A stretch of 64,000 bases of DNA from Chloroflexota bacterium (GTDB taxonomy: Bacteria > Chloroflexota > Dehalococcoidia > Lucifugimonadales > JADFKI01): positions 81,609-145,608 of the forward strand of contig JAQBUT010000004.1 in NCBI GenBank assembly GCA_027623195.1, read 5' to 3'. This document shows positions 61,613-64,000 of the stretch, piece after piece. Below the pieces are notes generated by a model. It made no database searches. It was not told the DNA's origin and worked only from the letters and a program-made list of their open reading frames with translations. Within the stretch, counting starts at the first letter, position 1; every line of letters starts with the position of its first letter. Made by a program: the position numbers and the translations under genes.

Positions 61613-61634
61613 TTGCGTTCTATTTTTAAGAGAT

Positions 61635-61925
61635 CTAGTTAGCGGCCTTGCTTAGCTCCGCCCCTGCTGTGAATCCCACACGCTTGTGCGCTGGGACTGT
61701 TATCAAATTGCCAGCCTGACCGCCCCTAATGGGACGTACCTTCCTGGCCTTCACCTGACGTACCTCGAAGGATCCAAATCCAGTTAGAACTACTCTGTCA
61801 CCAGACGACAAGGCATCCTGGATGCTGTCCAGTACGGCGTTTAAAGACGCCTCGCCCTGTGCCTTCGAACCCTTCATCTTCGACGCGACACGTCCTGCCA
61901 TGTCACTCTTTCGTAGGGTTGCCAT
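61635..61925 (-). CDS. HU family DNA-binding protein
   Basis: The 96-aa product has the pattern GDRVVLTGFGSFEVR...RNP-like arm typical of HU/IHF. Confidence 0.85.
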   Translation of the reverse strand: MATLRKSDMAGRVASKMKGSKAQGEASLNAVLDSIQDALSSGDRVVLTGFGSFEVRQVKARKVRPIRGGQAGNLITVPAHKRVGFTAGAELSKAAN

Positions 61926-61992
61926 AAGTATGTACCTCCTTGAGCCTTATGAAATGCTTACTCTCGACGCCACCCCCTGAATCTCGATTGCG

Positions 61993-62021
61993 ATAATATT
62001 TACAAAATATTGGCCTGTCAA
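61993..62021 (-). promoter_or_regulatory. sigma70-type promoter of the HU gene
   Basis: On the minus strand: TTGACA (62021-62016), a 17-nt spacer and TATTAT (61998-61993). Confidence 0.5.
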
Positions 62022-62164
62022 TAACTACACTCACGAATGCAATAAAACTTGGCTGTAGGAACATGAAATGCCCGCAATAAAAACCTTTTTACCTTCCGAA
62101 AAGTCCGGCAAACGAGCTTCGAAATCTTAGCCAATAATAAGGCGACGATAACGGAACCGAGGGA

Positions 62165-62173
62165 TGGTATAAT
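62165..62173 (+). promoter_or_regulatory. extended -10 promoter element of ssrA
   Basis: TGGTATAAT (TGnTATAAT) ends 11 nt before the mature tmRNA 5' end. Confidence 0.5.
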
Positions 62174-62184
62174 GTGTAGTAAGT

Positions 62185-62548
62185 GGGGACGCGTGGTTTC
62201 GACAGGGGATTAACTTCGAAGGATTGCAGGTCGAGGCGCCATCATCACCTCGTAAAAAGGTGGCAAAAAAATTAATTGGCAACTCACAAGAGTACGCCCT
62301 AGCCGCCTAATTTAGGTGACTACATCCATGGTTTCTTCTCCTCGAGGGAGGCTAATGGGTGATATAACATCGAGGTGCTGCCCGATTTACGCCGATATTG
62401 AGGGCCTAAGACTTATCGGCTGTGGGTTTGCAGTCGCTCCCCGCTGGAAGGTGCTGCCGACTCAAGATTAAAAATTCCGGCTAAGCCTGTAGTATATCCT
62501 CGTAGTCGTTTTCTGGACGGGGAGTTCGACCCTCCCCCGTCTCCACCA
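62185..62548 (+). ncRNA. ssrA: transfer-messenger RNA (tmRNA), tag reading frame GNSQEYALAA
   Basis: The 5' end is GGGGACGCGTGGTTTCGACAGGGG. The tag ORF is GGC AAC TCA CAA GAG TAC GCC CTA GCC GCC TAA. The 3' end has a T-arm (GGGGAGTTCGACCCTCCCC) and acceptor (CGTCTCCACCA) with the G-U pair at acceptor position 3. Confidence 0.92.
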
Positions 62549-64000
62549 ACTCCAAACTTGGAGTCGGTCTGTTTCATCCGGAGAGTGCAGCGTAAGTGCT
62601 GCGCTCTCCACCCTGGCCATAGCCTTTTCGAGCAACGTGCTAAAGGCAGCGGCTGGCCGGATGGCCCCTATAAGCCTGCTGTCTATATCTACGTACACAC
62701 GCTCAATAAGCGGGCTGATTAGCTTACGCCTCTCTTCAGGCGTCGCCTCGTTCCATAGGTCCTTTACGCTTGCGAACAGATGTGCTGCTTCTTCCATTGT
62801 AGGCAATTCGACATTTTCGGTCAATCGTAGGCCGGCATCAATCTCGGTGAGTTTCGCTTTATATTCAGCATCGCTAATGCCCCCAGCCATATAGGCCCGG
62901 GACACCCTCCGTTTTCGCTCCTGCAACTCCTTAGGGTCAGGCCCTTTATGGTCGGCCACAGCTAGCTGTGCCATCTCTTCTCGCCACTCCGGACGGAGTT
63001 CTATCGAAGTCAGAATGTCTTGAATCTGTTGATCGACCTTCGGCGCCATCATGGAGCGCCCGTTAGTGACGCACTCGCGGGAGTGGCGTTCCCGGTACAT
63101 CGCCCCGCCATAGCGGTGCCGGTCGGACTGGATTCCCTTTCCGCAGTTGCCGCAGGAGATCATCCCTTGGAGCAGACCCTTGGGACCCTGGACCGTGCGT
63201 ACAATGGTCCGACGTTTCCTGCGGCTCTGGACTTGTTCGTATAGCTCTTCGGAGATGATGGCCTCATGTTGTCCCAGGTACTCATCTTCATTGTATATAA
63301 CCTTACCTAGGTAGAACCGACAGTTCAGCATGTCCTTCACCGCGTGGCTGGTAAAGATTCCACCCTGGCGGGTCTTTAGGCCCTGGGCATTGAGCCAGTT
63401 GGCCAGCGAACCGGTAGACTCCCCGCCGGCTCGGCGACGGAAGACCTCAAGTAACGCTTTTGCTTCTATTTCCTCGGCCTGAGGAACTCCCCCCGGTTCC
63501 ACAATCCGGTAACCAAAGGGAATCGGCCCTATAGGGAGCCCGATGGTGGCTCGATACCGCTGGGCCTTGGAAACGTGGACGGCGAGTTGATCGGAAAAGA
63601 ACTCGGCCACGCCGCCTATCATTGTGAGCATCAGCTTGCCGCTCGGGATAGTGAAATCGAAATCTTCCATGACGCTTGCGAAGCCTACTTGGGCGTCACC
63701 CAGCGACTGTAGGGCTTGGCGCTGTACACCGACGTTCCTAGACCACCTGTCAATGGTGTGGACAACCACTATGTCGAACAGCCCTGCCTTGGCATCCGTC
63801 AGCAGTGCCATGAGCTTGGGACGTCGGTCTATTCGTTCGGTGTGAGCACTTTTCCCCTCTTCGACATAGACACCTACGAGATCATACCCACGCCGCTTAC
63901 ACCAGCGCTCGATGTCAGCCTTCTGGGCATCGATGGAGTACTTCTCCACCTGGGAGGGGTCGGACACCCTTATGTAAGCGACAACTCGGTTAGCTGAGGC
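62468..64000 (-). CDS. large serine recombinase (resolvase/invertase N-terminal domain + recombinase domain + zinc ribbon); 5' end outside window
   Basis: The frame is open to the window edge (..ASANRVVAYIRVSDPSQ..), with the catalytic Ser in RVS. DRWSRN and CGNCGKG motifs are present. The last 27 codons are antisense to the tmRNA 3' end. Confidence 0.8.
   Translation of the reverse strand, partial: ASANRVVAYIRVSDPSQVEKYSIDAQKADIERWCKRRGYDLVGVYVEEGKSAHTERIDRRPKLMALLTDAKAGLFDIVVVHTIDRWSRNVGVQRQALQSLGDAQVGFASVMEDFDFTIPSGKLMLTMIGGVAEFFSDQLAVHVSKAQRYRATIGLPIGPIPFGYRIVEPGGVPQAEEIEAKALLEVFRRRAGGESTGSLANWLNAQGLKTRQGGIFTSHAVKDMLNCRFYLGKVIYNEDEYLGQHEAIISEELYEQVQSRRKRRTIVRTVQGPKGLLQGMISCGNCGKGIQSDRHRYGGAMYRERHSRECVTNGRSMMAPKVDQQIQDILTSIELRPEWREEMAQLAVADHKGPDPKELQERKRRVSRAYMAGGISDAEYKAKLTEIDAGLRLTENVELPTMEEAAHLFASVKDLWNEATPEERRKLISPLIERVYVDIDSRLIGAIRPAAAFSTLLEKAMARVESAALTLHSPDETDRLQVWSWWRRGRVELPVQKTTTRIYYRLSRNF
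62549..64000. mobile_element. left edge of an integrated element (island or prophage) inserted at the 3' end of ssrA; continues beyond the window
   Basis: A serine recombinase gene abuts and overlaps the tmRNA 3' end, and the dyad ACTCCAA-AC-TTGGAGT lies immediately after the CCA. The other boundary is not visible. Confidence 0.5.

Follow-up and report, generated by a model that had tools for sequence, protein, structure and literature searches.

The DNA analysed here is a 64,000-nucleotide stretch (the window) from a metagenome-assembled genome (MAG) of a non-Dehalococcoides member of the Chloroflexota with a GC content of ~55%. Its right-hand end carries ssrA, the gene for transfer-messenger RNA (tmRNA), followed by the convergent gene of a large serine recombinase that is still open at the window edge; these two genes, and the short sequences that join them, are the subject of this report. 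An earlier sequence-only reading of the locus had placed a canonical one-piece tmRNA at 62185-62548, and this is what ARAGORN calls on the + strand, with the tag peptide GNSQEYALAA followed by a stop; the gene also gives a full-length match (1-374) to Rfam RF00023 (150.8 bits, E 2.4e-59). The features on which the argument turns are listed below, with related loci designated by L numbers and related proteins by P numbers.

62185-62548, + strand: ssrA, a one-piece tmRNA gene that encodes its CCA end (ARAGORN, Rfam RF00023, identity to sister contigs)
62468-64000, - strand: large serine recombinase gene, 510 codons visible, its first few codons past the window edge (Pfam, AlphaFold2 [AF2], Foldseek, alignment)
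62468-62531, - strand: tail that the host would encode for the integrated recombinase, VELPVQKTTTRIYYRLSRNF and the stop codon, antisense to tmRNA (from the putative crossover)
62532-62533, unstranded: putative crossover dinucleotide CT, on the T-loop/T-stem boundary, -17/-16 counted from the CCA end (arm symmetry, start of identity)
62532-62548, + strand: minimal copy of the tmRNA 3' end found at island junctions (core of the attachment, or att, site), CTCCCCCGTCTCCACCA, probably island-supplied in the window (recurrence at junctions)
62549-62557, unstranded: ACTCCAAAC, conserved outer island-side (P') half-site, which also encodes V-W-S of the recombinase (junction comparison)
62549-62564, + strand: perfect dyad ACTCCAA-AC-TTGGAGT, then T-rich CGGTCTGTTT, a short terminator-like hairpin (folding, terminator scan)
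62549-62633, unstranded: 85 nt of island left end, 100% identical behind another tmRNA in L087, MAG GCA_027619165.1 (alignment)
62580-62609, + strand: 12-bp GC-rich hairpin GGAGAGTGCAGC-gtaagt-GCTGCGCTCTCC inside the recombinase open reading frame (ORF), with no T run (folding)
63962-63964, - strand: catalytic serine codon, S13 of the visible translation, motif YIRVSD (invariant alignment column, within the Resolvase match)

The recombinase gene ends at a TAA stop codon (62468-62470, - strand) and its frame stays open through the window end at 64000, where the visible N-terminus reads ASANRVVAYIRVSDPSQ; the start codon is a few codons past 64000. Pfam recognizes the Resolvase domain PF00239 (E 1.6e-28, residues 6-150) and the Recombinase domain PF07508 (E 7.3e-18) and gives no match to Zn_ribbon_recom in this protein, and the C-terminal region of the A118 integrase (4KIS) aligns with residues 153-440. 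In a 40-sequence alignment with the window protein as reference, S13, R60, R85 and R88 are invariant and the window recombinase has all of the invariant family positions. Its AF2 model, with a mean predicted local distance difference test score (pLDDT) of 82.6, is confident to about residue 450 and shows strands at 281-318, helices at 319-428 and strands at 432-449; the top Foldseek matches of the model are full-length Bxb1 and other serine integrase complexes (E ~1e-19), with PhiC31 and A118 also among them. The 4KIS alignment, the model and the Foldseek matches agree on the order catalytic domain, recombinase domain, zinc ribbon and coiled coil, and the protein is, by sequence and predicted fold, a complete large serine recombinase. 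Its top NCBIfam match is CcrB, at 133.9 bits far under the family cut-off of 900. This is the sole gene in 62549-64000, no tyrosine integrase adjoining the att site in the window.

The same earlier reading had described a recombinase ORF running 81 nt into the tmRNA gene, and the sequence and Pfam matches bear this out: residues W485-F510 and the stop, 27 codons in all, are the reverse complement of the tmRNA 3' end (62468-62548). An open frame of 27 codons is by itself unremarkable by chance. Among the 293 homologues detected, the best of which are 71-75% identical and come from Chloroflexota and Dehalococcoidia MAGs, 120 were listed, and alignment of their C-termini, a check proposed in that reading, shows that 109 of the 120 run past the CCA into DNA complementary to a tmRNA 3'-end copy. 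Since so many of the listed homologues share it, the overlap is, on sequence comparison, a family trait. The ORF goes on into genuine tmRNA in 68 of the 109 and into other DNA in 31. The copy is read in all three frames (WWRRGR... in frame 1, 60 homologues; GDGGG.NSPS... in frame 2, 27; VETGE..RTPRP in frame 3, 22), and it is therefore the DNA that is conserved and not the peptide. Toward the tail, column conservation drops to 0.39 and then 0.12, and residues 481-510 have pLDDT values of 49-59. The sequence-only reading had counted a lack of conservation of the terminal 27 residues against its own proposal; the lack is real for the peptide, but together the three frames, the low pLDDT and the falling conservation argue against a functional tail, not against integration. 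We propose that the antisense-tmRNA tail is an unstructured by-product and no conserved module.

Site polymorphism and a shared island end

Sister contigs of the same population were retrieved through the window proteins PriA and HU, the window PriA being 100% identical to that of a "Chloroflexi bacterium" MAG; these contigs belong to the MEHR18-1 metagenome samples SAMN03444948 and SAMN03444961. Two of them, L093 and L095, match window positions 61630-62548 (HU gene, spacer and full tmRNA) at 99.8-99.9% identity, and the match stops exactly at the CCA. Beyond it come GGAACACGAAATGCCG, a T-run hairpin and the gene of an ABC-F ATPase; a recombinase is absent, and the first base 3' of the CCA already differs (GGAACAC... 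in the unoccupied site vs ACTCCAA... in the window). Written across the CCA boundary (/), the attL junction in the window is ...GTCTCCACCA/ACTCCAAACTTGG and the attB-like form is ...GTCTCCACCA/GGAACACGAAATG. The comparison with genomes lacking the insertion, which the sequence-only reading had called for, thus places the divergence directly after the tmRNA gene.

By their sequence, L093 and L095 represent the state without the window island but not a virgin site. The L093 tmRNA is followed by a recombinase-less stretch of 2.55 kb (L093 6824-9378) with the terminator hairpin and the ABC-F gene, and 2554 nt downstream of that tmRNA its 3' end recurs as a degenerate copy of 20 nt with 1 mismatch. 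We read this stretch as an older relic islet without a recombinase, from which it follows that the window island probably heads a tandem array.

The left end of the island recurs in a second host. In L087, the 85 nt that follow the CCA in the window stand behind a tmRNA with a divergent body (tag DNNRNFALVA vs GNSQEYALAA), and since the same 85 nt are found behind two different tmRNAs they are mobile DNA and not host DNA. The segment is followed there by a core copy, CTCCCCCGTCTCCACCA, and then by another recombinase gene. At L087 1560-1645, this 85-nt stub of a window-type island directly abuts a core copy that starts with the putative crossover CT; it could have arisen by secondary-site integration into the resident recombinase gene, or by deletion.

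Because the site is polymorphic within one population, the 85-nt end is shared and the recombinase family as a whole is associated with the tmRNA end, an island integrated at ssrA accounts well for the locus, and we consider it highly probable that 62532-64000 is the left (attL-side) end of an integrative island placed in the tmRNA 3' end by a serine recombinase. The same observations uphold the sequence-only reading in its proposal that an element integrated at ssrA occupies the window end; the only gene regularly linked to the site is a serine recombinase. It is unlikely that the element is a fixed, immobile relic, functionless today, in which the recombinase is kept without excision: the 510 visible codons form an uninterrupted ORF that preserves every invariant residue, and occupied and unoccupied sites coexist in near-identical genomes, which points to a recent event, even though the site has many relics (a decayed recombinase in L001, the 85-nt stub of L087, the 2.55-kb islet of L093) and no circular form was seen among the related loci.

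An assembly artefact is a rival explanation. Under it the junction between tmRNA and recombinase would be a chimera formed over the short repeated tmRNA 3' end, the recombinase really lying at the distal repeat or in another organism; two contigs of the same population do have different DNA after the tmRNA, the window is already a hybrid relative to its sister contigs at a 311-nt HU repeat, and the source contig apparently ends within the recombinase gene. We find this very unlikely, given that the shared core of 17-27 nt is below the usual final assembly k-mers, that tmRNA, CCA and the same 85 nt occur independently in L087, and that the tmRNA-adjacent recombinase is the commonest state of the family (68 of the 109 above, among the homologues listed). 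Even a chimera would leave the recombinase at an att copy.

Crossover, dyad and C-terminal tail

Junctions in which the copy of the tmRNA end has a left flank other than tmRNA indicate where exchange may occur. Identity to tmRNA starts there at -17 to -21 from the CCA end, and the same core of 17-21 nt is found with unrelated left flanks in L006, L012, L017 and L087; in L004 it starts at -27 and measures 27 nt. In 6 of 12 such junctions (L011, L017, L019, L025, L026 and L076), inverted-repeat arms are exactly 32 nt apart, the 9 nt after the CCA matching the upstream 9 nt as an inverted repeat at 6-9 of 9 positions; at this spacing none of 15 tmRNA junctions surpasses a match of 5/9. The centre of symmetry falls between -17 and -16, on a CT found in all copies, and we infer by transfer of this position from the sister clades that crossover in the window takes place at CT 62532-62533. 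The half-sites so implied are ~25 bp long, which is reportedly the usual size for the attP of serine integrases. The position agrees with the T-loop insertion point inferred for the ssrA islands of Dehalococcoides, whose recombinase is DsiB (McMurdie 2011, PMC3146451). With crossover at this CT, the last ~16 nt of the window tmRNA would be island-supplied. On the island side, L001-L004, L012 and L087 have ACTCCAAAC or a near match to it behind the CCA, and other recombinase clades have clade-specific sequences at this position (GAAACAC, TCCCTACA or CAAACAC). Within the window no second copy of the core was found, only the tmRNA's own copy matching.

The mechanism we propose is that the island integrase would be the large serine recombinase encoded at the island edge, convergent with ssrA, with attP lying within the 3' end of its own gene. 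Recombination between attP and attB at the 2-bp crossover on the T-loop/T-stem boundary of the tmRNA would let the island supply a replacement for the last ~16 nt of tmRNA together with a downstream hairpin, so that ssrA would stay intact. As the gene has no stop before the site, the integrated ORF would continue for 20 codons into antisense tmRNA. The expected attR would then consist of the island far end, CTCCCCCGTCTCCACCA and GGAACACGAAATG, and the expected attP of the same far end, the core and ACTCCAAAC.

A perfect dyad does follow the CCA directly at 62549-62564, as the sequence-only reading had pointed out, leaving two roles for it: an att core or the ssrA terminator stem. As the crossover core, with AC as central dinucleotide, it has an attractive form, being a perfect 7+2+7 palindrome with a non-palindromic centre at a gene end, shared by L001, L002 and L087, and improbable by chance; perfect 7-nt hairpins with loops of 2-4 nt occur 25 times in the window where 12.1 are expected, and the chance of one beginning no more than 5 nt from the CCA is ~0.001. 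Crossover at +8/+9 would however leave +1 to +7 identical to the host, and the unoccupied site already differs at +1 (GGAACAC vs ACTCCAA), so that the exchange must lie at or left of 62548 and the dyad centre is excluded. Moreover, the right arm is gone in L003, L004 and L012, and the palindrome is thus no family feature, the conserved part in the clade of the window being the left arm and two further bases (ACTCCAAAC); island-side copies also hold 17-27 nt of tmRNA to their left, which would be needed only if crossover took place inside the gene. The dyad as att core is, in consequence, extremely improbable.

Of the two roles, the terminator stem is the one that fared better. The dyad folds, and a terminator scan flags it as terminator-like owing to the T-rich CGGTCTGTTT. 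Other island types have, 8-45 nt past the CCA and within the recombinase ORF, a hairpin that mostly carries a T run, although the sequences are unrelated; no consensus fold over all post-CCA hairpins was obtained, their lengths being different, and an equal-length subset from DsiB-type islands shows 8 pairs with one compensatory change. The islands thus appear, from their sequences, to bring a replacement terminator for ssrA, and in the window this plausible role most likely falls to the dyad with its T-rich tail, perhaps also to the hairpin at 62580-62609, which is a possible stop or processing signal for ssrA read-through; the region around this hairpin (62520-62640) has a fold energy of -48.6 kcal/mol (z -4.55), and strong hairpins of unrelated sequence stand at the equivalent place in other island types. 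In the DsiB-type islands of L014, L016, L017, L019, L021, L024, L026 and L028, the CCA is followed within 45 nt by GAAACAC, a hairpin and a T run, all within the recombinase ORF, and the hairpin sequence varies from island to island. A separate observation comes from L002 (9980-10375), a Dehalococcoidia MAG locus in which a tmRNA without a recombinase has the same ACTCCAAACTTGGAG after its CCA, followed by a strong intrinsic terminator, a glycoside hydrolase gene and ordinary metabolic genes; this ACTCCAAACTTGGAG may be either a native flank mimicked by the arm of window-type islands or a 15-nt scar.

If crossover occurs at the putative CT, residues 491-510 of the recombinase (~20 residues) would be host-encoded in attL. 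The C-terminus must differ between the integrated and the excised forms, as the sequence-only reading had anticipated and as was noted already for DsiB (PMC3146451). An alternative C-terminal tail of 20-25 residues, VELHLNTYLRR...VELLAA plus stop, whose final LAA resembles an ssrA tag, is conserved in two recombinase clades ~35% identical to each other (P0002-P0005, P0014, P0019, P0040, P0086, P0203-P0206, P0217, P0220, P0225 and P0226; DNA at L004 5553-5640). Its DNA holds the arm motif GTGTTT at the expected distance, and because it does so, and because the tail is found on both of these distant clades, it probably comes from one common or widespread right end of a neighbouring island. The possibility that this tail is an ssrA-like degron switched by excision was considered and is weakened, the same tail occurring on recombinases ~35% identical with no co-evolution with the enzyme.

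Related recombinases, their cargo and the second recombinase

In all relatives with genomic context, the recombinase gene is convergent to tmRNA or to a 17-27-nt copy of the tmRNA end. The window protein is 36% identical end to end (E 2e-105) to the recombinase of L024, whose homologues include Dehalogenimonas proteins. The clade of L024 carries a module of recombinase, 211-residue resolvase, ParB and Mom, complete with the DsiA-like resolvase in L017, L019, L064 and L065 and represented in L024 itself by ParB, Mom and a DsiA-like fragment; in L018 and L065, ARAGORN finds a tRNA where mom begins. The closest relatives with context (L003, L004, L006, L009, L013 and L088) have other genes in place of the DsiA/ParB/Mom module. 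A Replic_Relax protein is encoded in L006, L011 and L027. In L088 (1-11617), a relative of 49% identity lies at a tmRNA beside smpB, at the edge of an element with type IV secretion system (T4SS) genes (TrbL, a TraG-like ATPase and a pilin) and, besides these, a primase and a Replic_Relax protein; this is, from its gene content, an apparent conjugative element using the recombinase family of the window. A second family member (P0038, L006) is encoded ~118 kb from L088 on the same 3.67-Mb contig, at a copy of the tmRNA end. Prophages are not what the neighbourhoods suggest: the genes beside related recombinases are relaxase, T4SS or ParB/Mom genes and not virion genes, and no relatives of the window recombinase were found in IMG/VR viral contigs.

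More distant relatives (25-33% identity) are convergent to tRNA genes for Asp (L029-L031, L036, L038 and L040), Asn (L063 and L069), Met (L066) and Leu (L073), their ORFs ending 39-87 nt inside the tRNA. Among 18 tRNA- or tmRNA-adjacent loci, 14 ORFs finish 23-96 nt within the RNA gene. An attP located in the recombinase's own 3' end and paired with an RNA-gene target seems, from these loci, to extend well past tmRNA, and the window recombinase is probably one lineage within a wide and seldom noticed assemblage of large serine recombinases that would target tmRNA and the tRNA-Asp, -Asn, -Met and -Leu genes.

The cargo also bears on which enzyme placed the island. Tyrosine integrases are the classical enzymes of tmRNA sites, and the window island could have been placed by one encoded further in, past the window edge, the serine recombinase being an accessory resolvase or invertase at the island edge. 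L003, L004, L009 and L013, all among the closest relatives with context, do have a tyrosine-recombinase-like (Phage_integrase) gene ~1.7 kb upstream of the serine recombinase, that is, further into the island, together with small ORFs. In L004, however, the tyrosine recombinase is split into two fragments; tblastn finds no relative of it in L006, L010, L011, L019, L024 or L027, where the serine recombinase overlaps the core, and the same overlap is seen in L006 and L088, in which no Phage_integrase gene was called. The serine recombinase is the only gene that abuts the site invariably in all clades, and the 32-nt arm spacing and ~50-bp footprint fit the attP of a large serine recombinase and not a tyrosine core with a 6-8-bp overlap. 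Placement by an inner tyrosine integrase is accordingly judged highly improbable.

Several points weigh against integration by the serine recombinase. The Phage_integrase genes of the four relatives just named are one, and by analogy a second (tyrosine) recombinase may have a role in the window island as well. The junction of tmRNA and island in the window genome comes from one assembly, and its core is a short repeat. The window copy of the recombinase is a predicted integrase of putative activity. Symmetric P/P' arms were not found for the window's own clade, whose junctions (L004, L012 and L087) are all heterologous. No protein more than 75% identical to the window recombinase was matched in the protein collection, and the far end of the island (attR) beyond 64000 was not recovered; a scan of genome contigs for the continuation gave two distant loci only, and the sister contigs obtained through PriA and HU do not hold the window's own continuation. 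None of the 18 tRNA- or tmRNA-adjacent loci has a complete island with both ends within 10 kb, and terminal overlap revealed no circular contigs among the related loci, L004 included.

On the other side of the tmRNA gene, and within it, three further features were noted.

61635-61925, - strand: HU/IHF-like gene adjoining ssrA (NCBIfam IHF/HU matches, contig comparison)
62166-62174, + strand: candidate extended -10 promoter of ssrA, TGgTATAAT, ending 11 nt 5' of the tmRNA (sequence reading)
62279-62311, + strand: tag reading frame, GNSQEYALAA plus stop (ARAGORN peptide; coordinates from sequence)

The TGgTATAAT motif is a candidate promoter that a simple two-hexamer scan does not flag. The HU/IHF-like gene sits in the 311-nt repeat (61630-61940) mentioned above, which has other flanks in the sister contigs: aminotransferase-HU-SGL/YebC in L089, L090 and L092, GAF-HisKA-HU-tmRNA in L093 and L095, and GAF-HisKA-HU-SGL in L094, the order aminotransferase-HU-tmRNA occurring in the window only. 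This mixture suggests either an inversion between two HU copies or a chimeric assembly at the repeat, an ambiguity that touches the linkage of the tmRNA end to the first 61.6 kb and not the tmRNA-recombinase junction.

Comparison with known systems and significance

The nearest described systems are the ssrA-specific islands of Dehalococcoides (McMurdie et al. 2009, PMC2764846; McMurdie 2011, PMC3146451), and ssrA-associated islands have also been reported in Dehalogenimonas (PMC13390414). Those of Dehalococcoides are inserted at the T-loop, have a 20-bp repeat and begin with a six-gene module headed by the ~540-residue DsiB, followed by the small resolvase DsiA, a RecF-like protein, ParB, Mom with an embedded tRNA-like locus and a primase-like protein; the 3' end of dsiB always overlaps attL, its stop codon being found only upstream of the island, even inside ssrA (PMC3146451). 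The window shares with them the target (a single-copy tmRNA gene, at its 3' end), a recombinase at attL that is convergent with ssrA, lacks a stop before the site and overlaps ssrA or the repeat, and the occurrence of tandem arrays and relics. A T-loop insertion point and a ~20-nt repeat of the tmRNA 3' end at the far boundary, which lies outside the window, are putative for the window island; indirect support comes from the divergence directly after the CCA, the 17-27-nt copies at related junctions and the symmetry centre at -17/-16. Homology is full-length, as established through the L024 clade, a distant sister clade, and not with a Dehalococcoides DsiB sequence itself. The differences are an identity of only 36% to the DsiB-type clade, the post-CCA motif (ACTCCAAAC vs GAAACAC) and, in the closest relatives of the window recombinase, a tyrosine-recombinase-like gene, Replic_Relax or T4SS genes instead of DsiA/ParB/Mom. 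The six-gene module was not found here, the window ending in the recombinase and the closest relatives lacking it; it is present in the 35%-identity clade (L017, L019, L024, L064 and L065). On these comparisons the window island is of one broad type with the ssrA islands of Dehalococcoides and Dehalogenimonas (DsiB), its recombinase lineage being a separate one. The layout, including the overlap of ORF and attL, is already published for the sister lineage; the window represents a separate lineage of the recombinase in another member of the Chloroflexota.

SCCmec offers a second parallel, CcrA and CcrB also being large serine recombinases whose island goes into a conserved, single-copy housekeeping gene at its 3' end and leaves short direct repeats. 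The SCCmec target is rlmH/orfX, and the system differs in using two recombinases, in targeting a protein gene and in having no ORF read-through into the target. CcrB was also the comparator chosen for the Dehalococcoides islands (McMurdie 2011, PMC3146451). The phage integrases Bxb1, PhiC31, A118/LI and TP901-1 have the same domain order and fold, and the putative att sites of the window family are likewise short and quasi-symmetric around a 2-bp crossover, whereas identity is 14-20% and the window family is absent from IMG/VR. The window differs from these phages further in that the 3' end of its RNA-gene target is rebuilt, so that attP and attB would share at least 17 nt on one side, and in that attP would lie inside the integrase ORF.

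The islands that tyrosine integrases place in tDNAs (Williams 2002/2003; Islander, PMC4383910) also integrate into the 3' part of the gene, restore it with a copy of their own, leave a displaced fragment that marks the far end and form tandem arrays, but through an unrelated enzyme family and chemistry; at the time of the Islander survey (2015), only tyrosine integrases were known to target tDNAs (PMC4383910). Among the tycheposons of Prochlorococcus, which likewise occupy tRNA and tmRNA genes, a minority, 27 of 937, encode a large serine recombinase in place of the tyrosine enzyme; the phylum is a different one, and the passages considered here report no overlap of ORF and att site (Hackl et al., 10.1101/2020.12.28.424599).

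Whether the obligatory read-through of the recombinase gene over its own att site is a regulatory device and not an accident is doubtful, and we give the former little credence. In the integrated state the 3' end of the gene would be antisense tmRNA, faced by the strong convergent ssrA promoter and with the island hairpin or terminator lying within the ORF. Were this regulatory, recombinase transcripts would be silenced or would be non-stop and hence substrates for tmRNA tagging, tying the stability of the island to the gene that it occupies, and an enzyme with a normal stop would come from the excised circle alone.

For annotation, the long C-terminal "extension" of these recombinases should be read as antisense tmRNA rather than protein. 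The integration reading, if correct, carries a mechanism known in organohalide-respiring Dehalococcoidia over to a further lineage of the Chloroflexota and a further clade of recombinases, and suggests that serine recombinases acting at the tmRNA gene move many kinds of cargo in Chloroflexota, including elements with a relaxase and a T4SS. It would also run counter to the older view that tyrosine integrases alone target tRNA and tmRNA genes (PMC4383910). The T-arm and acceptor end of tmRNA are among the most conserved bacterial sequences, which would make the enzymes of this family candidate broad-host landing-pad integrases.

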